From the UHGV virus genome UHGV-1813710: a stretch of DNA of 13,011 nt. The stretch is one strand, 5' to 3'. Numbering within the stretch: the stretch's first letter is position 1; each line of letters opens with the position of its first letter. Made by a program: the position numbers and the translations under genes. A model generated the notes under the pieces. The model did not search any database and was not told the origin of the DNA. It worked only from the letters and a program-made list of their open reading frames with translations. Origin of the DNA: a virus. Of this stretch, positions 689-13,011 are shown piece by piece.

Positions 689-871
689 TCAGCCCCCTCG
701 CTTCGCTGGATGAGTGATTTGTTCCACAGACCAATGAGCAAAGCTGTGGTTGATAGGTACCCACTCACCCGCTAAATTAACTGCATAGCGTAACGGGGCT
801 GGCGGTCTAGCATTATCGACCGGTAAGCAACGTAATTGCGGAACCTTGCAAGTTGCTGTTAATATGTTCAT
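689..871 (-). CDS. Small hypothetical phage protein (60 aa)
   Basis: ATG at 871-869 overlaps the TGA of the upstream CII-like ORF (ATGA overlap), and its own stop abuts the start of the downstream gene. The ORF track gives a longer version starting at 925 that would overlap the upstream gene. Confidence 0.4.
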   Translation of the reverse strand: MNILTATCKVPQLRCLPVDNARPPAPLRYAVNLAGEWVPINHSFAHWSVEQITHPAKRGG

Positions 872-1395
872 GCGATTGATTCTCCACACAGACAATTTTT
901 CGCCAAGGCGCCCGGAGCTGCACACTCGCGGGCGTCAACTTTTTCAGGCTCGCAATAGACACGAGCCACAAGCGTAAGAAACTGCATCAAGATGATATGG
1001 ATCTGGTGCGCTACTTCATTTAGCCCATCGAACTCTCGCCGCGTAATGACGTTGTCTGCTTTGTACTCACGATACGCGTTCGACAATTCCCCCAGCTTTG
1101 CCACCAGCTCAGCAAACTTATCGCCGATATCTTCGTTATCAATTTGATCAAGTTCTGGAAGCAATAAGAAAACGCCCCCCGAGATCCGCGCAATAGTTGA
1201 TGCAAAGTCTTCTGTCTGGCTGAATGCTTGCATCTGCAGCGCGTCATTGACGCTCATGTATTGAGCCCCGGCACCGCCACGTTCATAAACAAGGTTTTCA
1301 AGCTTGCAGCGGCTGTAACCTAAAGCGGCTGACATTGCATCCCAGCCGCCGGGATATGCCCTGATCATTGACTGGTAACACTTGCGAATTTCCAC
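868..1395 (-). CDS. CII-like early regulatory protein (phage CII/CP76-type, tentative)
   Basis: 175-aa ORF directly downstream of the cro-like gene on the same strand. GTG start at 1395 with AAGGGG Shine-Dalgarno 6 nt upstream; first in-frame ATG is 27 nt inside. Position and sequence style recall phage 186 CII-type regulators; the family assignment is from memory only. Confidence 0.5.
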   Translation of the reverse strand: MEIRKCYQSMIRAYPGGWDAMSAALGYSRCKLENLVYERGGAGAQYMSVNDALQMQAFSQTEDFASTIARISGGVFLLLPELDQIDNEDIGDKFAELVAKLGELSNAYREYKADNVITRREFDGLNEVAHQIHIILMQFLTLVARVYCEPEKVDARECAAPGALAKNCLCGESIA

Positions 1396-2830: not shown

Positions 2831-2898
2831 TCCATCAACCGCAGTCACTAGCACTATCAGTGGTTGTGGATACTTAAGAGACTTAGGTGGGAGTTCAA

Positions 2899-3159
2899 AT
2901 GACTAGTTATTACACGTGCTCTTTTTGCGGGATACGCGAGCAGGATGCTAAAAGGATTGTTGCCAAGGGTGGCAGAGATGAGCCAGCAATCTGCTCTAAG
3001 TGCATTGTCTCATGTGTAAATGTCATTATTAACGCAGGAACAGTAATGGAAATAGAGAAAAAAGGCGCCAATAAGGGTGAATTAATCCTTGATATGGAAT
3101 TGGCACCTCGATCAGAAAAAATGTCATTTACTCAGACTGAGGTAGCTCAATCGGATTAA
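2899..3159 (+). CDS. Small protein (86 aa) with a ClpX-type C4 zinc-finger (ClpX N-terminal zinc-binding-domain-like) and no ATPase domain
   Basis: Sequence MTSYYTCSFCGIREQDAKRIVAKGGRDEPAICSKCIVSCVNVII has C-x2-C-x19-C-x2-C and parallels the ClpX N-domain (recalled E. coli motif YCSFCGK…RKLIAG…ICDECVDLCNDII). GGGAG Shine-Dalgarno 6 nt upstream of ATG 2899; the track's 2887 start is GTG. Confidence 0.65.
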   Translation: MTSYYTCSFCGIREQDAKRIVAKGGRDEPAICSKCIVSCVNVIINAGTVMEIEKKGANKGELILDMELAPRSEKMSFTQTEVAQSD

Positions 3160-3458: not shown

Positions 3459-3971
3459 TTAGAAGATCATTGGAGCGATATCTATTGGCTCATATGCCGA
3501 TTTGTTCATTAGAAAAAGGCTGGCGCAATGAAAGCATTTGCATTGTTCAAAGTAACAAGAGTTATTCGAATTATATCCAACCTCTCCTGTTGGCTGGAGT
3601 ATCGATACTATTTTTTGTGTGAAGCATTTTGGGCAAAGATGCACGGCTATTTGCATTCCGTTAACAGATTCATTCTTAGAATAAACAAACGTTCCAGAAT
3701 CAAGCTGGTTCAGAGCATAACCTTCAGTCTGGCTTTTAAAGTCTTCGAACTCTGCAATTTTTGCTTTGAGCGTTACGGCTTCTTCCTGATAAAAGCGTGC
3801 AAGCTCAATGAGCGACATGCATTCACGCTGCACAGACGTAAGCTTTAAAACCATATCGCTAACAGCAGAATTTATCTCTGCCTGTGTTTTTGCATTTGAA
3901 ATAACTTTCGCCAAAGCAGTCGTTTCTTTAATTGCCGACATTGCAGCTGTGATTTCAACAAACACTTTCAA
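3459..3971 (-). CDS. Hypothetical protein (170 aa): helical/coiled-coil N-terminal half, Cys-rich C-terminal half; AT-rich moron-like gene
   Basis: Protein-like ORF convergent with the flanking rightward genes; the opposite-strand ORFs (3528-3848, 3808-4008) look like antisense artefacts. C-terminal half has a CPKC…C…CKCFHC pattern suggesting metal binding. TTG start at 3971 with no clear Shine-Dalgarno; alternative ATG at 3941. Sequence is visibly more AT-rich than neighbouring phage genes. Confidence 0.5.
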   Translation of the reverse strand: MKVFVEITAAMSAIKETTALAKVISNAKTQAEINSAVSDMVLKLTSVQRECMSLIELARFYQEEAVTLKAKIAEFEDFKSQTEGYALNQLDSGTFVYSKNESVNGMQIAVHLCPKCFTQKIVSILQPTGEVGYNSNNSCYFEQCKCFHCASLFLMNKSAYEPIDIAPMIF

Positions 3972-4406: not shown

Positions 4407-4493
4407 ACCACACAGAGAGAAGTGCTTGTTGAGTGCTGCCCTGTGTGTGGAGAACGTATCGCGATGTGCATCGCACTTTCTGAGGGTCAAACA

Positions 4494-4868
4494 ATGAGTA
4501 AAGAAAATCGCATGACAGTAGTGCCCGAGTTCTTGGGCGAACTGGATGCAGGGATCTTTGAAAATAAGATTGCTGCAGCGTTAAACAGTACCGCTTTAGG
4601 CGTTCTAAACAACGGCGGTAAAGGTCAGGTTGTTGTTACGTTTGATATTGATCGACTGAGCAATTCGGTTGAAGAAAAACGCGTTGGTATTAAGCATAAG
4701 TTGAAGTTCGTTACACCTACCCCACGGGGCAAAGTGTCAGAAGAAGACACCACGGAAACGCCTATGTACGTAGGGAAAGGTGGCAAGTTAACAGTATTGC
4801 AAGAAGATCAAGGGCAACTGTTTTCAATCGATGGCGCCCCGGATGGAAAATTGCGCCAAACGCAATAA
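4494..4868 (+). CDS. Hypothetical phage early protein (124 aa)
   Basis: ATG at 4494 with GAGGG Shine-Dalgarno 7-11 nt upstream. The track's longer form starts at 4422, but that extension is encoded by a palindromic leader and is Cys-rich. Confidence 0.6.
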   Translation: MSKENRMTVVPEFLGELDAGIFENKIAAALNSTALGVLNNGGKGQVVVTFDIDRLSNSVEEKRVGIKHKLKFVTPTPRGKVSEEDTTETPMYVGKGGKLTVLQEDQGQLFSIDGAPDGKLRQTQ

Positions 4869-4925
4869 TCTTGGCAATTAAATAAACCTCACCATTTTAT
4901 TACTTAATTAAAGCAAGGATAAAAC

Positions 4926-5753
4926 ATGTCACAAGTAGACGGTTCAGCTATTCAACAAATTAAAGATCTTTCACTGGCTGCATTTTATTTAGACCCAATT
5001 AAATCAACTAACTGCCCTGCAGTTATTATTCCGTCTGATTATCAAGTTAAGAGCTTGGAAAGCTTAAATGATGGTCGTTTTCGTTTTCGCGGCAAATTAA
5101 GCACAACTAGCATTGCTGATTTTGTTCGTTATTCATCTGCATACTCTGAAGGTCAGCCGGGCGCCAGTTGTTTTATTGACGCTGACAATATGTGTGCAAC
5201 ATCCGTTTTCAACCTAGGCACGCTTGAGAGCGCAGGCCACGCTGATAACACTGCAGCAATCGCTTTGAAAAAAACAGCACCATTCTGTGCTCTGCTTGAT
5301 TTCAATGGCGAAAAGTCACGCCAAAAGCAGCTTGCAGAATGGCTAGAGGATTGGAGCGACTTCCTCACCGCCTTTGATGCAGACGGCAAGGTACTTCCAA
5401 TTAAACAAGCTGTTAGCGCCATTCGCCGTATTACCATTGAATCAGTGCAAAGTGCGGATCATGAAGATGCTGATTTCAGCGGTAAGCAGTCATTGATGCA
5501 AAGTGTAGAGGCTAAAAGCAAAGAGATCATGCCTGTGGCCTTTGAATTTAAGTGCGTACCTTATGAGGGCTTATCCGAGCGCCGTTTCAGTCTGCGTAAT
5601 AGTATTCTGACGGGGGACACGCCTTTATTCGTTCTGCGTATTGTTCAACTGGAAGCTGTAGAGGAAGAAATTGCAAACGAATTCCGTGATCTGCTCACAG
5701 AGCAATTCACAGGCAAATCAATTGAAACCTTTATTGGTAATTTTAAAGCCTAA
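4926..5753 (+). CDS. Hypothetical phage protein, DUF2303/YfdQ-like (recollection, unverified)
   Basis: 275-aa ORF with AAGGA Shine-Dalgarno 7 nt upstream of the ATG. Its size and the following HD-domain gene resemble the yfdQ-yfdR arrangement of the E. coli CPS-53 cryptic prophage. Confidence 0.65.
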
Positions 5754-5779
5754 TTATTAATAACATTTAATACAGCCTT

Positions 5780-5803
5780 AAGCACCGAGCATATTCGGTG
5801 CTT
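5780..5803 (+). other. Perfect 8-bp stem hairpin in the intergenic region between early genes
   Basis: AAGCACCG (5780-5787), 8-nt loop, CGGTGCTT (5796-5803). The downstream tract is only moderately T-rich, so it may be an attenuator or processing/stability element rather than a strong terminator. Confidence 0.3.
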
Positions 5804-5843
5804 AGTGAAGTGTTATCTGTTTAATGTGTGGAGAAATTAAAAA

Positions 5844-6377
5844 GTGAATAGCCCTTATATTATTACCTTCTCAGGTAAAGCATTTAATTTAATCGAGCCT
5901 CAGCGCGAGCAAATAGTGATCGAGGATATTGCTCATGCGCTAGCGAGAGAAAACCGCTTTAACGGTCACACTAAGGCCGCATACAGCGTTGCCCAGCACT
6001 GCTATCACGCATCATTTTGTGTACCGCCAGAGTTCGCACTTGAGGCGCTAATGCATGATGCTGCCGAGGCTTACATCAAAGATATTCCATCACCAATAAA
6101 GCTTCTTTTGCCAGATTATCGCGCATTAGAAAAACGCGTTGAAATGGCTATCTGCGAACGATTTGGCCTACCACTAGCGCTGAGTAGCTGCGTCAAATAT
6201 GCAGACCTCATCATGCTGGCATCAGAAAAACGCGACCTTGGCATCGTCGATGAAAAACCGTGGCCACTTTTGGAAGGTATTCCAGTTGCTGATTTCACTA
6301 TCGAACCAATGACTGCAGAAGTTGCCGAGCATCTCTTTATGGGGCGCTACGTAGAATTGACGGAGCTATGCAAATGA
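5844..6377 (+). CDS. HD-domain phosphohydrolase (YfdR/YfbR-like nucleotidase family)
   Basis: HD-domain signature H…H…HD: IAHALARENRFNGH…YSVAQHCYH…EALMHDAAEAYIKDIPSPIK, plus VKYADLIMLASEKRDLG. GTG start at 5844 with GGAG 11 nt upstream. Confidence 0.75.
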   Translation: MNSPYIITFSGKAFNLIEPQREQIVIEDIAHALARENRFNGHTKAAYSVAQHCYHASFCVPPEFALEALMHDAAEAYIKDIPSPIKLLLPDYRALEKRVEMAICERFGLPLALSSCVKYADLIMLASEKRDLGIVDEKPWPLLEGIPVADFTIEPMTAEVAEHLFMGRYVELTELCK

Positions 6378-6754
6378 CGCACATCAGTGAAATACCAGCA
6401 GGAACATTAGTTAAGCAAGCGCATGCAGGCGTGAAGCTTATTGCTGAACAGTATCCAGAGGCAGCGGCAATATTACGTGAAGCCATTACACGCTTTGATG
6501 TGTTGCGTGAGGTCCACCAGCTGACCAACCACAAAGTTAAAAAGCCCGTTACTGATGTGAAGCCTAATGATGTTGTTTGTGTTTTTGGTAAGTGCTACCG
6601 GCTGCGATACATCAACTATTACGGGAACCATTCAGTATTGCGCTTTCAGCCAGCTAGAGAGCCACTATCTCCATATACAGAAAATGATGTGATCAGCATC
6701 GATTTAGCAAATGACATTCTGATTGAGGTTGTGGGGGGGCTGAACAATGTCTGA
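6374..6754 (+). CDS. Hypothetical phage protein (about 126 aa)
   Basis: ATG at 6374 overlaps the TGA of the HD-domain gene (ATGA), with GGAG 8 nt upstream; the track uses the in-frame ATG at 6368. Confidence 0.55.
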   Translation: MTHISEIPAGTLVKQAHAGVKLIAEQYPEAAAILREAITRFDVLREVHQLTNHKVKKPVTDVKPNDVVCVFGKCYRLRYINYYGNHSVLRFQPAREPLSPYTENDVISIDLANDILIEVVGGLNNV

Positions 6755-7499
6755 ATTATCAACTGAGCGTTTAGAAAAATTCGTCAACGATATTAAAACT
6801 GATGGGATGTGCGACATAACTGATTATCAAGTTGCGTTGGCGTTACGTCAGTTACTGGCATACGAGCAAGCAGTACCGGTATTACCTAAACAGCCTGAGA
6901 CTCAGTTCGATGAAATCGCGCTTGATACTGCAAGAGAGATTATGCGTGATGTAAACCAGCGCCATGAATTGATTGGCGGTGAGTGTCAGTTGCTTGCGCG
7001 CACTCAGTGTCGAATTAATGACGTACTGTGTAACGTCGCAGCACCAGCACAACCTGTAATACCAGAACAAGCTAAGCCTGTGGCATATACAGACAATAGA
7101 AACTTAAAAAGTCTACAGAAAGGATGTAATACGGCATTGCTCTGGCTTAAGCATAACGCCGAAGTTGGTGATATTCCTCTATATACCGAAGTGCCGACAC
7201 AACCTGTAAGCGAGCCTTACAAGCTACCAGTCGGATATTTTTCTTATGGCTCTGAGTGTGGTTTTGATTGGCACAATACAGAGAAAGAAGCGATTGAAGC
7301 TGCCGAGGCTGTAATTGACAACTATCGCGGTGATGCGTGCGACGGCTGGTCTGAGGAAACAGACAGTGTCTGCTGGGGTGTCATTTTGCAACAGGCAACA
7401 AAGGTCGATGAGCGCCCACGTACTGATGATGATAAATGCGATCCGGCTATTGATACGGTCTGTGATTACGCGCTACTACCGGCGCAGGAGAGCGAATAA
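6747..7499 (+). CDS. Hypothetical phage protein (250 aa), Cys-containing C-terminal region
   Basis: Start overlaps the upstream gene by 8 nt, with a GGGGG Shine-Dalgarno. Ends in …AQESE, whose codons form the Shine-Dalgarno for the next gene. Confidence 0.6.
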   Translation: MSELSTERLEKFVNDIKTDGMCDITDYQVALALRQLLAYEQAVPVLPKQPETQFDEIALDTAREIMRDVNQRHELIGGECQLLARTQCRINDVLCNVAAPAQPVIPEQAKPVAYTDNRNLKSLQKGCNTALLWLKHNAEVGDIPLYTEVPTQPVSEPYKLPVGYFSYGSECGFDWHNTEKEAIEAAEAVIDNYRGDACDGWSEETDSVCWGVILQQATKVDERPRTDDDKCDPAIDTVCDYALLPAQESE

Positions 7500-8263
7500 T
7501 GCGCCCTCACTTTCACGGAACCCCGATTTGGGGGAATGCTGGCGATGTTTTGCGTGTTGCTGTTAGCGGAGCTGGTGCATTCGTTTCTTACGTTAGACCA
7601 GACCAGATTGAGCGCTGTTTTAAATATGCGGATAGTGTAGCTATCGATAACGGCGCGTTTTCAGCATGGAAAAGCGGCAAGAAATTGGATTGGAATAAAT
7701 TCTATGAATTCCTGTACAGGCATTATCACCGCTCAAAGCTTGCATTTTTTTGTATTCCAGACGTTGTGGAAGGTGGTGAAAGCGATAACGACGCAATGAT
7801 TAAAGCCGTTCCGCACATATTCAAAGAAAAAGCAGCTCCGGTTTGGCATTTACACGAATCTATCGAGCGCTTAATTCGTTTGTGCGAAGAGTGGCCGCGC
7901 GTGTGTTTTGGCTCGTCTGGTCAGTACGCGCGAACATTAACAAAGCTATGGCATGAGCGCATGAAAGAAGCTTTCACGGAGATTTATATCAAGCGCCAAC
8001 TGACAACGAAAATACACGGACTACGCATGCTTGATGGTCGCATTTTGGGTAACTACCCGCTACACAGCGCAGATAGCACAAACCTAGCATGCAACGTTCC
8101 AAAATTTAACATGAAGTATCCAGAGCTAACCCGAGCTGTATTAGATAAGGGGTATGGTCAAGACATGGTTCAACTACACCGTTGCGCGATTCTAAAAAAC
8201 TCAATTGAGTCAGTAACACCGCCGAGCATCGCGGCGTGGGTAGCTGCACAGGAGAGCGAATAA
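7499..8263 (+). CDS. Hypothetical phage protein (254 aa); weak, unverified resemblance to tRNA-guanine transglycosylase (TGT)/DpdA-type proteins
   Basis: TAATG overlap with the upstream gene. Segments HGTPIWG, VAIDNGAFSAW and GLRMLDG loosely parallel the TGT segments PVGTYG, LTDSGGFQV and GIDMFDCV (recollection, not a computed alignment). Confidence 0.6.
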   Translation: MRPHFHGTPIWGNAGDVLRVAVSGAGAFVSYVRPDQIERCFKYADSVAIDNGAFSAWKSGKKLDWNKFYEFLYRHYHRSKLAFFCIPDVVEGGESDNDAMIKAVPHIFKEKAAPVWHLHESIERLIRLCEEWPRVCFGSSGQYARTLTKLWHERMKEAFTEIYIKRQLTTKIHGLRMLDGRILGNYPLHSADSTNLACNVPKFNMKYPELTRAVLDKGYGQDMVQLHRCAILKNSIESVTPPSIAAWVAAQESE

Positions 8264-8264
8264 T

Positions 8265-8549
8265 ATGGCTCGGACGATTAACGACTCTATAGATGCAACT
8301 ATAGCCTCTCTCGTTAGTAACATTCACAACTTGCGCAAAGAAGTAGAAGAATCAGCCGTTCTACGACTGGCAAGCTTCCGCCAGCGCGAACTAATGATCG
8401 AAGGCGTTCGACAAATGTCCGCGCATTACAAAAAGGAGGCGAAAAGCTTTATGGACTCACAAGATCAAGTTGAGGCCATTGATTGCAGCTATATCGCTAA
8501 AAAGTGTGATGCATTTATTGCGCACATTATGAAGCAGGAGAGCAAATAA
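8265..8549 (+). CDS. Hypothetical phage protein (94 aa), predicted helical
   Basis: ATG 2 nt after the upstream stop, preceded by the same CAGGAGAGCGAATAAT junction motif. Confidence 0.55.
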   Translation: MARTINDSIDATIASLVSNIHNLRKEVEESAVLRLASFRQRELMIEGVRQMSAHYKKEAKSFMDSQDQVEAIDCSYIAKKCDAFIAHIMKQESK

Positions 8550-8911
8550 TGCCGACTAACAAGATAACAGAGCATTATCTTAGTTCATTGATCGTTAGAT
8601 TGCGCCGCCGCGCGTTTGAACTGACAGGGACTCAATCAGCGAATCTTATGAATGAAGCAGCTAAAGCGATCTATGAATTTCGTGAGTATAGAAGAGCTAA
8701 TCCAGCGTTGCCCGCCGGCTGGAAGATAGCCCCGCGAGATCCGGATGAGGAAATGATTATAAGGGGTTTTGAGTCTGAACCCGATGAATCATTCAGCACG
8801 CCGGAGGATTGGGAGCGGTACGAAAAAATGAGTGGATGCGAGCAAGCTGCGCATAGAGTCAAATTAAGTTGGACTGCAATGTTTGATGCAATACCCCCCA
8901 TTAAGGATTAA
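8549..8911 (+). CDS. Hypothetical phage protein (120 aa)
   Basis: TAATG overlap with the upstream gene; third copy of the junction motif (CAGGAGAGCAAATAATG). Confidence 0.55.
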   Translation: MPTNKITEHYLSSLIVRLRRRAFELTGTQSANLMNEAAKAIYEFREYRRANPALPAGWKIAPRDPDEEMIIRGFESEPDESFSTPEDWERYEKMSGCEQAAHRVKLSWTAMFDAIPPIKD

Positions 8912-9505
8912 ATGATGATCGACTCAATTGTTATTGATACCGAAACTATGGATGTGCGCCCATCTGCATTATTGCTTTCAATCGGCGCAATTGCATTCGA
9001 TGTGACAGATCTCGAAGCGCTTCGCTACAACATTTCTTATGCAGTTAAAGCGGAGCACCACAGCAGTGAGTCATATGTTTTCTATCATCTGCTAGATGCT
9101 AATTCACAGATCATGGTAGGCCGCACCGTGTCTAGAAGCACTCAGATGTGGTGGAGGGGGCAAGGTGATTCAGCAAAAGCAGCGTTGGATGGCGATAAGC
9201 AAGATCTAAAAGAAGTACTTGAAGCATTGACGCACTGGATAGCTCAATATCCAGATGCACAGATTTATTTTCGTGGTACTGACTTTGACGGTTCTATTCT
9301 CGAGAGTGCGTATCGAGCTTACGACTTGAAATGTCCGTGGAAATATAATGGCAAGCGCGATGTACGTACATTCATTGATGCATTGAGCGGGAGCGATAAG
9401 GGTTATATTGCAGATCATGAACCTTGCTTTGCAATGATTAAGCATAATTCACTTCATGATGCGATGAACGATGCAGAGCAAATGGCTATAGCTCACTCTC
9501 TTTAA
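8912..9505 (+). CDS. DEDDh-type (DnaQ-like) 3'-5' exonuclease
   Basis: Exo I-like IVIDTETMD, Exo II-like FRGTDFDGSILESAY and Exo III-like HNSLHDAMNDAEQ are present in the expected order and spacing. ATG immediately follows the upstream TAA. Confidence 0.75.
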   Translation: MMIDSIVIDTETMDVRPSALLLSIGAIAFDVTDLEALRYNISYAVKAEHHSSESYVFYHLLDANSQIMVGRTVSRSTQMWWRGQGDSAKAALDGDKQDLKEVLEALTHWIAQYPDAQIYFRGTDFDGSILESAYRAYDLKCPWKYNGKRDVRTFIDALSGSDKGYIADHEPCFAMIKHNSLHDAMNDAEQMAIAHSL

Positions 9506-9513
9506 TAATTTAC

Positions 9514-9545
9514 GGCCCGTGTGCAGCGGGCCATATTTAATTTAT
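9514..9545 (+). terminator. Hairpin with AT-rich tail between the exonuclease gene and xis (weak terminator or attenuator)
   Basis: GGCCCG (9514-9519), 7-nt loop, CGGGCC (9527-9532), followed by ATATTTAATTTAT. Confidence 0.35.
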
Positions 9546-9563
9546 CTGTGTGGAGTTTTAATC

Positions 9564-9782
9564 ATGGCGAAAGAAGCTAAATTGATGCGCGCGAGCGCGT
9601 GGGGCAAGCGTGAGTTCGAGGTGGGTTCTATTCCTGATAATAGAACTATTAGGCGCTGGATAGAAAATGGCCGTTTGCGTGGCCGGATTGTTGATGGAAC
9701 CATTTTGGTTTATTCATCTGAACGCTGGGGTATTGAGTCTGTTGTATCCCACCACGTACATAATTTAATTAGTGAATCATGA
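9564..9782 (+). CDS. xis: Excisionase (lambda Xis-like)
   Basis: Lies immediately upstream of int with an ATGA overlap. Segment RTIRRWIENGRLRGRIVDGTILVYSSE parallels lambda Xis ETVRRWVRECRIFPPPVKDGREYLFHES. GGAG 9 nt upstream of ATG 9564; the track's 9519 start lacks a Shine-Dalgarno. Confidence 0.75.
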   Translation: MAKEAKLMRASAWGKREFEVGSIPDNRTIRRWIENGRLRGRIVDGTILVYSSERWGIESVVSHHVHNLISES

Positions 9783-10960
9783 TGGCAGCTCGACCACGCA
9801 AGCGTGAAAACCGGCACCTTCCCGATCTGCTGTATTTCGATAAAGTTGCCGGCGTTTATCGCTTTACCCTAATCACGGGAAAGAGAAAATCATTAGGCTC
9901 TGACCGTGCTTTAGCAATCGCTATTGCGCGTGAATATAACAATAGAATGCGACCGGATATAGTTGTATCAGTTGACTCGCTTATTAGTGAATCGGGCGGC
10001 TTGAAGGGGGAATCCCTGCCCTTCTCCAGTCATGTTGATCATATTCTCGCTCGTGCTATCACGGACGAGAAACCAAGCCCTGATACAAAGGCTGACTGGA
10101 TGAATGATGCAAAACGAGTGAAAGAATTCTTCATTGACATTCACTGCTGCGATATTGAACTAGAGCACGTCAATGCGTTCATTCAGCATTATCATGCTGA
10201 AGCATCAGCAAACGTACAAAACCGCAAAGTTAGTTTTCTAAAGAAATTATTTAGTTATGCAGTAGACGAATCGTTAATGTTCGATAATCCAGCAACTAGA
10301 AAGAAAATGCGGAGAATTGAGGGGAAAGTTCGCCAACGCTTATCTTTCGACAATCTGATGGCTATACGAAACGCCGCGGATCGATGGCTGCGAACTGCGA
10401 TAGATCTAGCTCTACAGACAACGCACGCCCGGCTTGAAGTTTCCCGAATTCGCTATTCAATCAAAGAGCCCAAAAATGGCGTGTGTGGCTGTGTGTGGTT
10501 CGACGCTCCAGAGAGTGGGATTTATGGCGTTATGTATATACACAGGCAGAAAGTGCAGCACAAAGAAGCATCACACGTCGCAATACCAATCGGGCCTGAA
10601 CTTAAAAGAATTATTGATGATAGCCGCGACAATGCTGCTAGCCCATACATTGTTCATCGTTTACCAAAACGCAATAATAAGCCAAGCAAAGAGGTTTCAC
10701 ATCCTACACAAGTAGCGCCAGACTACTTGAGCCGGGCATTCTCAACACTTCGAGATGAGCTCGGGATTTGCTCACATCTTGAAATGGATGAACGTCCGAC
10801 ATTCCATGAAATCCGAGCGCTTGCTGCACACCTATTTGATACGCAAGGCATTGACCCACAGGGCCGCATGGCTCACAGCGACGCTAAGTCGACTAAGATA
10901 TACACGCAAAATCATATCGATTGGGTCATGGTGCCGCACGGCGAGATCAAGACGGGATGA
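9779..10960 (+). CDS. int: Tyrosine site-specific integrase, lambda Int family
   Basis: N-terminus RENRHLPDLLYF…GKRKSLGSDRALAIA parallels lambda Int HERRDLPPNLYI…GKEFGLGRDRRIAIT. C-terminus has PTFHEIRALAAHLF (H-x-x-R box) and …STKIYTQNH (catalytic Tyr). Adjacent to xis and to the tRNA-derived att core. Confidence 0.95.
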   Translation: MMAARPRKRENRHLPDLLYFDKVAGVYRFTLITGKRKSLGSDRALAIAIAREYNNRMRPDIVVSVDSLISESGGLKGESLPFSSHVDHILARAITDEKPSPDTKADWMNDAKRVKEFFIDIHCCDIELEHVNAFIQHYHAEASANVQNRKVSFLKKLFSYAVDESLMFDNPATRKKMRRIEGKVRQRLSFDNLMAIRNAADRWLRTAIDLALQTTHARLEVSRIRYSIKEPKNGVCGCVWFDAPESGIYGVMYIHRQKVQHKEASHVAIPIGPELKRIIDDSRDNAASPYIVHRLPKRNNKPSKEVSHPTQVAPDYLSRAFSTLRDELGICSHLEMDERPTFHEIRALAAHLFDTQGIDPQGRMAHSDAKSTKIYTQNHIDWVMVPHGEIKTG

Positions 10961-11037: not shown

Positions 11038-11094
11038 GTCGACAACCTAGAGAAACCAGTGCTGGCGCGGGTTTCAGCGTGTTGAATACGCTAA

Positions 11095-11140
11095 CATGGG
11101 GTGTCGGGGGTCGGAGGTTCAAATCCTCTCGTGCCGACCA
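11095..11140 (+). other. Partial tRNA: 3' about 45 nt of a tRNA-Pro-like gene (anticodon loop to CCA), i.e. the att core repeat at the prophage boundary
   Basis: T-arm GGAGG-TTCAAAT-CCTCT (11113-11129), acceptor 3' strand CGTGCCG, discriminator A and CCA (11138-11140). No complementary 5' acceptor strand (CGGCACG) upstream, so the tRNA is not intact. GGG sits at the inferred anticodon position and the string matches my recollection of enterobacterial tRNA-Pro. Confidence 0.65.
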
Positions 11141-11152
11141 AATAATCCCAAG

Positions 11153-11182
11153 AAAACCAACCTATTATGGGTTGGTTTTTTT
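11153..11182 (+). terminator. Rho-independent terminator (tRNA-gene-type) just outside the att core
   Basis: AAAACCAACC stem, TATTATG loop, GGTTGGTTTT pairing, followed by a run of T residues to 11182. Confidence 0.7.
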
Positions 11183-11453
11183 ATGTCTTCAATTTGTCAC
11201 TACGGCCAATATTACGCGCAGCAAGAAGTAAAAAAGCCCCCAAAGTGATTGGGTGGCGGGCTGAGGAAGTGCTCGAGATGGCTGAAGCAGGACTGATATA
11301 CGACGAATTTAGGGTAGTCTAAAGCTATTTGAATCCTCATGACCACGCTGAGGTTGAGGTATACTGCTTCAGAGCGGGGTAAATAAATTACGTCGCTATA
11401 GACAGACATAGGGATTGTCGCAGTTCTGGTCAGAAGACATTAGGATTGAGAAT

Positions 11454-11780
11454 ATGGAAATAAATCACTGCGAATTATATGTCAAAGACCTTGTCGGCCT
11501 GTCCCTGATTTTGATTGTGTGGGCTGTACTCGTCTGGAACTTCATTTCCTGCTGTTTCACAGGGCGTGCTAGCTTTATGTTTTCCCGTTATAGCTTCAGA
11601 CGCACCAAGGACGAATTGGGAATCATTGGGGATCGAACGGGAAGTAAGATACTCTATTTCTTAGCTATGGCGCTCAAGTTACTTTTAATTGTATTTTTTT
11701 CATACAGTGTATTTGTGCCATTGTTCAGCCCTGGAGTATTTGAGGAAGTAATGGGCCACATTTTTACCTGCCATAAATGA
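11454..11780 (+). CDS. Possible small membrane protein (two hydrophobic segments); doubtful
   Basis: ATG at 11454 with AGGA 9 nt upstream; the track form starts at TTG 11415. Two hydrophobic stretches (LVGLSLILIVWAVLVWNFI and ILYFLAMALKLLLIVFFSYSVFVPLF). Could equally be a degraded region. Confidence 0.25.
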   Translation: MEINHCELYVKDLVGLSLILIVWAVLVWNFISCCFTGRASFMFSRYSFRRTKDELGIIGDRTGSKILYFLAMALKLLLIVFFSYSVFVPLFSPGVFEEVMGHIFTCHK

Positions 11781-11989
11781 GTTCTGATACTCTACCCTCC
11801 CCCCACGGTGAACTTTTAATGTTAATAAGTTTGTTCATTTCGTTACGTTGCTTCTGCAGATGGAGCCCCTCTATAACGAATAAAAAAACAATCATTAGGG
11901 TCTTTTAATACCTAATTAACCAAAAGTAACATAGCATTTTCATAATAGATAAAATTAGATATAATCAAATATTATCTATTATTAATAGC

Positions 11990-12997
11990 ATGGCTAATTT
12001 TTATTACATGGATACAGACAAAAATTTCAATCATGAAAATGATTCACTATTCAAAAAAAACACTATTAAAACAAGCAATAACAATCTAAAAGTACTAAAT
12101 ATTGCATTCTGTTTTGATGATAATTTTGTGATGCCAACAGGTGTAGCCATTGCATCTGTCATTGAAAACAATAAAGACTCGCACCTCCACTTTCATTTAT
12201 TCTTCGAATCCATTTCTGAAAAAAACAAATCTAGAATACTTGAGATACAAGGTGATAACGTTTCAATAACAACATATGAACTTCAGGAAGAACTATCCGT
12301 CAATCCTAATACACTCATTCTGGGAATCCCAAAGTCCACGTGCTTAAGATTTATGGTTCCTTTTGTTCTACGGCATGAGGTTGATTCTGTTTTATATTTG
12401 GATGGCGATATGATTTGCTTAGATTCATTACACGCCTTACATGACCTAAACCTTAAAGGACATATTGCCGCTGTAGTTGCTGACTCTAAAGAGATGCAAC
12501 AGAAAGCCAGCACACTAGGATACGGTATTGATACCGATAAATATTTCAATGCAGGATTTTTATTTATCAATGTATCTGAGTGGAATTTTAAAAATGTCAC
12601 CGCCGTGGCATTTAACATGATCAATAGCGGTACAATTTATAAATATGCCGATCAGGATGTATTAAATATACTCTTAAACGAAAACATTAAATTAATTGAC
12701 AAGAAATATAATAAAACTATAACGCTAAGCCCTATCGATAGGGTAGATGATAATGCATCTCGTGGCACAACCATTTTGCATTATGTTACAAAAAATAAAC
12801 CGTGGTTTATGATATTTGAGTCTCAGATTTTCTTTTATTACCTGAATCAATCTCCATGGAAAGACACGCAATTAAAACTGACACCTAATGCTAGCCTGCT
12901 TAGAATAAAGGCAAAAAAACTCCTTTCTGATAAGAAATTTGTCGATTGGATAAAATATTTCTCCCTATATATTAAATATAAATTATTTAGCAAATAA
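11990..12997 (+). CDS. Glycosyltransferase family 8 (LPS/LOS glycosyltransferase-like, RfaJ/LgtC type)
   Basis: GT8 hallmarks: NIAFCFDDNFVMPTGVAIASV (nucleotide-sugar binding region), YLDGDMIC (DxD motif), NAGFLFINVSEW, YADQDVLN and HY…KPW. Very AT-rich gene preceded by an AT-rich promoter-like region. Confidence 0.8.
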   Translation: MANFYYMDTDKNFNHENDSLFKKNTIKTSNNNLKVLNIAFCFDDNFVMPTGVAIASVIENNKDSHLHFHLFFESISEKNKSRILEIQGDNVSITTYELQEELSVNPNTLILGIPKSTCLRFMVPFVLRHEVDSVLYLDGDMICLDSLHALHDLNLKGHIAAVVADSKEMQQKASTLGYGIDTDKYFNAGFLFINVSEWNFKNVTAVAFNMINSGTIYKYADQDVLNILLNENIKLIDKKYNKTITLSPIDRVDDNASRGTTILHYVTKNKPWFMIFESQIFFYYLNQSPWKDTQLKLTPNASLLRIKAKKLLSDKKFVDWIKYFSLYIKYKLFSK

Positions 12998-13011
12998 AAC
13001 CATCAGCATTA

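Follow-up and report, generated by a model that had tools for sequence, protein, structure and literature searches.

A previously unannotated DpdA-like protein of the 'DpdA-only' phage group in a Hafnia prophage

Phages that place 7-deazaguanine bases in their DNA do so with DpdA proteins. In Escherichia phage CAjan, deletion of dpdA removes 2'-deoxy-7-cyano-7-deazaguanosine (dPreQ0) from the phage DNA (PMC6884629). Other phages carry dpdA without the genes for the free base preQ0 (7-cyano-7-deazaguanine) and form the 'DpdA-only' group. Only two of these, Salmonella phage 7-11 and Pantoea phage MED16, have been analysed for DNA base, and the data are correlative: dADG (2'-deoxy-7-amido-7-deazaguanosine) replaces ~0.02% of G in 7-11 (PMC6884629) and ~0.13% in MED16 (PMC8306585), with no dPreQ0 in either. 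MED16 DNA was cut by most of the restriction enzymes tried (PMC8306585). The searchable literature holds no genetic or in vitro test of any DpdA-only protein. Here we describe a gene of this kind in the virus genome UHGV-1813710, a stretch of 13,011 nucleotides that we refer to as the window. We put at roughly 0.7 the probability of our reading, in which it encodes a phage DpdA that works, by analogy, as a DNA-guanine transglycosylase from the tRNA-guanine transglycosylase (TGT) superfamily cut down to a bare TIM barrel. The gene is an open reading frame (ORF) located as follows.

7499-8263, plus strand: dpdA-like ORF, ATG to TAA, 254 aa; its product, from the 'DpdA-only' phage group, is a minimal protein with the (beta/alpha)8 TGT fold

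The coordinates and length follow from the ORF translation, and the opposite strand has stop codons throughout this region. At NCBI the protein is labelled only as 'hypothetical protein'. In terms of family, it matches phrog_887, 'queuine tRNA-ribosyltransferase', in PHROGs (E = 5e-82), and CAjan DpdA itself belongs to PHROG 887. A tblastn search against GenBank phages returned 107 matching records. The best identity was to gp38 of Salmonella phage SEN1 (YP_009217891, 64%), followed by homologues in Escherichia phage ECO111 5-P and Flyfo siphovirus Tbat1_6 (both ~60%), gp38 of Pantoea phage vB_PagS_MED16 (56%), gp29 of Escherichia phage HK106 (YP_007151699, 45%) and gp032 of Salmonella phage 7-11 (YP_004782407, 41%). 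Hutinet et al. 2019 (PMC6884629) catalogue the SEN1, HK106 and 7-11 proteins by accession as DpdA in their Supplementary Data. A word-indexed search found 5344 homologues, nearly all in Enterobacterales prophages and mostly labelled hypothetical, and an exhaustive search gave 742 representatives at the 50% identity level. The closest relative outside Hafnia is less than 70% identical, and Megablast found no near-identical DNA in phage or E. coli collections.

A diverse family alignment was built from 63 relatives, and all residue counts given below are out of 63. With hhalign, the profile of these relatives scored 98.75% (E = 1.4e-16) against CAjan DpdA and 98.87% (E = 3.2e-17, 174 columns) against a 25-sequence CAjan-type profile. 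The TGT/DpdA-like identity had been offered as speculation in the earlier note, from three segments that are all present in the translation (HGTPIWG at residues 6-12, VAIDNGAFSAW at 47-57 and GLRMLDG at 174-180). With the PHROG match and thousands of homologues, the resemblance is not due to chance, and the note's call holds up in essence. Membership of the phage DpdA family is secure in our judgement. The gene is a previously unannotated member of the described 'DpdA-only' gamma-proteobacterial group and no new kind of system.

Some relatives are longer. At the Rosenbergiella metrosideri locus (7953-9686) the dpdA-like frame extends as a 577-aa ORF, which suggests a fusion or read-through into the downstream gene, or a sequencing frameshift. 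The downstream gene in SEN1-like prophages is the P2 A-type replication gene. Several representatives of 300-420 aa from the exhaustive search (e.g. P0121 and P0126) also bear added sequence.

Hidden Markov model (HMM) searches, both with the single sequence and with profiles, matched the protein to no TGT or DpdA entry in Pfam, NCBIfam, PADLOC or the complete set of PDB chain sequences. Likewise, Pfam PF01702 (TGT) and the solved TGT sequences were matched neither by the protein, nor by the 63 relatives, nor by the profiles A1, A2 and A4. CAjan DpdA and its relatives equally have no Pfam or PDB sequence match, and E. coli TGT finds the solved bacterial DpdA (bDpdA) at E = 1.7e-4 only. Because a validated DpdA fails the same tests and even E. 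coli TGT reaches bDpdA only at that level, these HMM negatives are uninformative. In hhalign, the family profile scored below 2% against E. coli TGT or a two-sequence alignment of the E. coli and Z. mobilis TGTs, as did DpdA1, such a template being too thin. For MED16 gp38, an HHpred match of 99.18% to T. maritima TGT (2ASH) is on record (PMC8306585).

As for the predicted active site, the conserved positions are the following.

7637-7669, plus strand: VAIDNGAFSAW, residues 47-57, D-x-G-x-F motif at the end of strand 3; D50 codon at 7646-7648
7760-7762, plus strand: D88 codon, in IPDVV just after strand 4; invariant (63/63)
7847-7849, plus strand: H117 codon, in PVWHLHE at the end of strand 5; 63/63, aligned with the invariant H132 of CAjan-type DpdA
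8015-8038, plus strand: HGLRMLDG, residues 173-180, strand 7; aligned with VHGFGIT of DpdA1
8066-8083, plus strand: SADSTN, residues 190-195, end of strand 8; D192 codon at 8072-8074, then S193

Invariant across the relatives are D50, D88, H117, H173, D192 and S193, which in the structural model lie at or just past the C-terminal ends of strands 3, 4, 5, 7 and 8. The C-terminal strand ends are where TIM-barrel active sites are usually found. When the CAjan-type DpdA sequences are added to the alignment, D50, A53, H117, H173, D192 and S193 stay invariant.

VAIDNGAFSAW aligns with LDSGAFSA of CAjan DpdA, with D50 on D63, and by eye resembles TDSGGFQ of E. coli TGT. D50 and F/Y54 are each present in all 63 relatives. 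The D-x-G-x-[FY] motif known from Z. mobilis D102 and bDpdA D95/F99 is found here, its equivalence to that of TGT resting on motif and strand position, and D95/F99 share the 4-residue spacing of D50/F54 (PMC10164549, from which all bDpdA residue roles are taken). D50 is predicted to be the general acid/base and F54 the base-stacking residue.

The strand-8 nucleophile Asp (Z. mobilis D280, bDpdA D256) has its counterpart in D192. Both D192 and S193 are found in 63 of 63 relatives and are invariant with DpdA1 (SCDSSS), where D192 aligns to D206; the nucleophiles of bDpdA and TGT occupy the same barrel position (PMC10164549). D192 is likely the covalent nucleophile. The earlier note had sought the catalytic Asp in GLRMLDG instead, and here its motif assignment stood only in part: VAIDNGAFSAW does match the TGT/DpdA motif, but D179 is an Asp in only 22 relatives and was rejected as the catalytic residue. 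Elsewhere in strand 7, H173 is present in all relatives and L175 and R176 in 60 each, and G174-L175 are probably the counterpart of GGL, the base-pocket segment in TGT. H117 would be the base-recognition His, the counterpart of bDpdA H181, and D88 the base-recognition Asp, the counterpart of bDpdA D130 and Z. mobilis D156. The D88 equivalence is the weak point of the assignment, as the invariant Asp of DpdA1 (SVLDG) lies three alignment columns later.

An AlphaFold2 model from a 57-sequence alignment reached a predicted local distance difference test (pLDDT) score of 94.5 and a predicted template modelling (pTM) score of 0.90. It consists of eight strand-helix units and then three C-terminal helices, and the eight units form a TGT-type (beta/alpha)8 barrel. 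Compared with known structures, the model ranks them as follows.

Rank 1: Cap10, the TGT-like protein of type IV CBASS (cyclic oligonucleotide-based antiphage signalling system), 16.2
Rank 2: Salmonella Montevideo DpdA (7UI4), 15.1
Rank 3: archaeosine TGT, 13.9
Rank 4: bacterial TGT, 13.5
Rank 5 onward: unrelated TIM barrels, 13.4 and below

The margin is narrow, yet a single superfamily fills the top four places. Foldseek lacked specificity with the PDB, where assorted TIM barrels came out on top. Against predicted viral structures it gave 32 matches at E <= 1e-3, and the named ones are almost all phage 'queuine tRNA-ribosyltransferases', including those of Arthrobacter, Microbacterium and Mycobacterium phages. 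The profile and structure searches proposed in the earlier note gave a DpdA1 profile match and the TGT superfamily in the top structural ranks, and no TGT match among Pfam families or PDB sequences.

The same note described the protein as short and without an obvious zinc subdomain, which is correct. Conserved Cys clusters are absent: in none of the alignment columns does Cys reach more than 30 of the 63 sequences. The chain ends ~60 residues past barrel strand 8, and in the model this tail consists of helices only. In bDpdA and TGT the zinc site lies in a large insertion after strand 8 (PMC10164549). CAjan DpdA also lacks a CxCxxC motif. Since a validated phage DpdA has no zinc motif, the zinc site marks TGT and bDpdA, not phage DpdA, and its absence is no argument against DpdA function.

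In terms of base supply, no homologues of queC, queD, queE, folE or yhhQ were found in the window by Pfam scans of all sizeable ORFs, one prophage arm being visible; for the first four genes this is what the earlier note had stated. An Rfam scan of the window detected neither a preQ1 riboswitch nor any further family. In the whole genomes of SEN1, HK106, MED16 and 7-11, queC, queD, queE, folE and yhhQ are likewise absent (PMC6884629, PMC8306585). According to Hutinet 2019 (PMC6884629), the hosts of DpdA-only phages, save Clostridium and Mycobacterium, encode the full queuosine pathway.

When all proteins of the window were compared by BLAST with 13 further dpdA loci, among them those of P2-like prophages, of a lambdoid phage and of lytic phages, no neighbour gene recurred beside dpdA, and the dpdA-like gene therefore travels alone. 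A locus scan with a closer alignment yielded only 10 loci. The lack of a conserved partner argues against a dedicated enzyme, encoded beside the gene, that converts preQ0 to ADG (7-amido-7-deazaguanine), and a DpdC-like neighbour is not conserved among the dpdA-like loci compared. In Tbat1_6, the ~60%-identical homologue directly follows a transporter of the Vut_1/YhhQ family, above the Pfam cut-off, and the preQ0 cluster of CAjan holds the same kind of transporter. This adjacency ties the DpdA-only subgroup to 7-deazaguanine salvage.

As a product of the early-left operon, the protein would be made after induction or infection and would act on replicated phage DNA. By analogy with TGT and bacterial DpdA, D192 would attack C1' of the target deoxyguanosine and displace guanine, with D50 as general acid, and a covalent enzyme-DNA intermediate would form. 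A free base of the 7-deazaguanine type (preQ0 or something closely related, for instance ADG) would then bind between F54 and L175, be read by D88 and H117, and be joined to the sugar. This base would come from the host queuosine pathway, because the window holds no gene for preQ0 synthesis. That such a modification protects the phage DNA from restriction is a claim we consider fairly probable, but we hold it with less confidence than family membership, given the trace dADG and the restriction-sensitive MED16 DNA.

The amounts found in the relatives, only 0.02-0.13% of G replaced, and the little restriction protection that MED16 gains would also suit a sparse, sequence-specific enzyme of DNA base exchange or base excision. 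Such an enzyme would mark or process a small number of positions, for instance against one particular defence system or to provide a recognition signal, and would not serve bulk anti-restriction. The occurrence of the gene as a single cassette moving among unrelated temperate and lytic phages without a fixed partner points the same way, and Hutinet et al. themselves ask whether singleton DpdAs have diverged in function (PMC6884629). However, neither a site specificity nor a target defence system has direct support, low dADG may merely reflect scarce host precursor, and bDpdA and DpdA2 alter <0.1% of G and are still accepted as DNA modifiers. We regard this explanation as unlikely.

A somewhat smaller chance is given to a protein that has kept the TGT-type 7-deazaguanine pocket and acts on something other than phage DNA. 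Candidates are the tRNA of the host, or deazaguanine attached to a protein as in the case of CBASS Cap10; the dADG traces of related phages would then come from a side reaction. Cap10 does lead the structural ranking, but its score is only marginally over that of bDpdA, and the nearest characterised relative by sequence profile is the DNA-modifying CAjan DpdA. Beside the gene, in the window or at the 13 other loci, there is no CD-NTase (a nucleotidyltransferase of the cGAS/DncV-like kind), Cap9/QueC-like gene or conserved partner, and PADLOC has no match to the protein.

Taken more broadly, the short DpdA-only proteins of temperate enterobacterial phages might place 7-deazaguanine at few specific sites, or act on a non-DNA target, in place of bulk anti-restriction; we think it improbable. 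The base would then perhaps be ADG taken directly from the host QueC reaction, and if true, the role would be one in signalling or anti-defence, unlike that of the Queuovirinae DpdA. Finally, a generic TIM barrel unrelated to TGT, with merely coincidental motif likeness, could draw on the HMM searches, in which neither TGT families nor solved chains of TGT were matched, and on the TIM barrels that lead the Foldseek search of the PDB, but it is already largely refuted and very improbable.

A DNA-guanine transglycosylase remains our preferred reading, and the arrangement of the gene bears on when it would be made. The dpdA-like ORF shares 1 base with the stop codon of the gene before it, and a gap of 1 base lies between its own stop and the next gene's start. 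Convincing internal promoters or terminators were not detected. The ORF is therefore a member of an operon, and by the lambda paradigm its expression is expected from the early-left promoter, on induction or infection. The junctions on both sides carry a repeat.

7485-7500, plus strand: 16-nt junction repeat CAGGAGAGCGAATAAT, upstream copy, containing the end of the preceding ORF (final codons and stop), a Shine-Dalgarno sequence and the A that opens the dpdA ATG
8249-8264, plus strand: downstream perfect copy of the 16-nt repeat, at the 3' end of dpdA
8535-8550, plus strand: third copy of the 16-nt repeat, with one mismatch, ending a third consecutive gene

The repeat has the sequence CAGGAGAGC[G/A]AATAAT, and its 3 copies, against ~0.01 expected by chance, close 3 successive genes on the plus strand. 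Each copy encodes ...QES(E/K)-stop and gives the next gene its Shine-Dalgarno sequence. The dpdA-like ORF is bracketed exactly by both perfect copies, an arrangement suggestive of a cassette boundary at which genes are exchanged by recombination. The repeat is not present in the other dpdA loci retrieved. The 250-aa ORF that precedes dpdA (6747-7499, plus strand) is translationally coupled to it and has no Pfam match. It is the sole member of its 90%-identity cluster, found only on two metagenome contigs of the same prophage.

The window as a whole is one arm of a lambda-like prophage, and exact-sequence matches name Hafnia alvei/paralvei as the host. Its main landmarks are listed here.

868-1395, minus strand: CII-like gene
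1720-2700: cI-type repressor, with helix-turn-helix and peptidase S24 domains
9779-10960: tyrosine integrase, preceded by an excisionase-sized ORF

The early genes lie on one strand in the order YfdP-like protein, DUF2303 protein, HD-domain protein, two unknowns, the dpdA-like ORF, two small unknowns and an Rv2179c-like 3'-5' exonuclease. The module 5' of dpdA (4422-6754, plus strand) contains the YfdP-like protein (PF27127, found on an identical contig), the DUF2303 protein (E = 2.5e-70), the HD-domain protein and a 128-aa unknown protein. In make-up it is presumably similar to yfdP-yfdQ-yfdR-yfdS, a block in the E. coli CPS-53 prophage. The HD-domain protein is like YfbR-type 5'-deoxynucleotidases, a weak match just under the Pfam cut-off, and a nucleotidase adjoining a DNA base-exchange enzyme may be a coincidence.

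At the integrase end, ARAGORN called a tRNA-Ser(tga) at 11057-11140 (plus strand), which we rejected as an artefact (19.4 bits with the Rfam tRNA model, threshold 29). Over 11095-11140 the sequence is the same, without any difference, as the 3' 46 nt of proL, the E. coli tRNA-Pro(GGG) gene, the 5' part of the call being unrelated. A truncated tRNA-Pro 3' half beside an integrase therefore marks the attachment-site boundary of the prophage, and a terminator-like hairpin follows at ~11157-11183. Over 11400-13011 the GC content drops to 32-35%, across a Hafnia GT8 (glycosyltransferase family 8) gene for lipopolysaccharide (LPS) at 11990-12997. This gene lies just beyond the prophage, and low GC is typical of horizontally exchanged LPS-core/O-antigen loci.

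At the other end, a 90-aa protein with a ClpX-type C4 zinc finger (2887-3159, plus strand, E = 3.7e-7) is encoded downstream of the repressor, with a strong bidirectional terminator between the two (2718-2739). The 170-aa ORF at 3459-3971 (minus strand) has no family match, lies in a low-GC stretch (~39-40% GC) and may be an accessory gene expressed in lysogeny.

With this locus a Hafnia prophage joins the DpdA-only phages, and the 'hypothetical protein' label is corrected. DpdA-only proteins are common in enterobacterial prophages, and which base they insert, at which sites, and whether this protects the phage is a wider question for the subgroup. An inducible prophage with a single-gene cassette, in a host with standard queuosine synthesis, would be a convenient system for it. 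Such prophages are also possible targets of defences that sense deazaguanine DNA.

In comparison with known systems, the locus is closest to the DpdA-only group (Hutinet et al. 2019 group 3; Šimoliūnienė et al. 2021), with full-length homology at 41-64% identity, a length of ~235-276 aa, the same invariant residues and a lone gene without preQ0 genes. HK106 has dpdA at the corresponding point of a lambdoid genome, with the recombination genes on one side and xis-int on the other. The Hafnia host and the prophage backbone are different, with no neighbour in common.

DpdA1 of the Queuovirinae (Escherichia phages CAjan and 9g), a validated preQ0 DNA transglycosylase, is in the same PHROG, matches at 98.9% over the barrel core, and has in common the invariant D, H, H and D-S; neither protein has a zinc motif or a Pfam match. 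However, the two are only ~16-17% identical, and DpdA1 is ~50 residues longer, has other N- and C-terminal extensions and sits in a folE-queD-queE-queC-yhhQ cluster. DpdA1 also replaces ~30% of G with dPreQ0, compared with trace dADG in the singleton group.

More distant is bDpdA of Salmonella Montevideo (7UI4), which has 413 aa and a 128-residue insertion after strand 8 with structural Zn2+, needs the DpdB ATPase and is followed by DpdC (PMC10164549). None of these is found here: no bacterial Dpd gene (dpdB, a ParB-like ATPase, dpdC or dpdD-K) is adjacent, the neighbours being prophage early genes, xis and int. To the TGTs (bacterial, archaeosine and eukaryotic QTRT1) there is no detectable profile similarity, and the dpdA-like protein is ~120 residues shorter, without the zinc subdomain or the tRNA-binding C-terminal domains. 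Lastly, Cap10 of type IV CBASS (9NTN) works with Cap9 and a CD-NTase with an N-terminal Gly-rich tag, whereas the window and related loci have no type IV CBASS operon (CD-NTase, Cap9, effector) and the dpdA-like gene stands among the early genes of its prophage.
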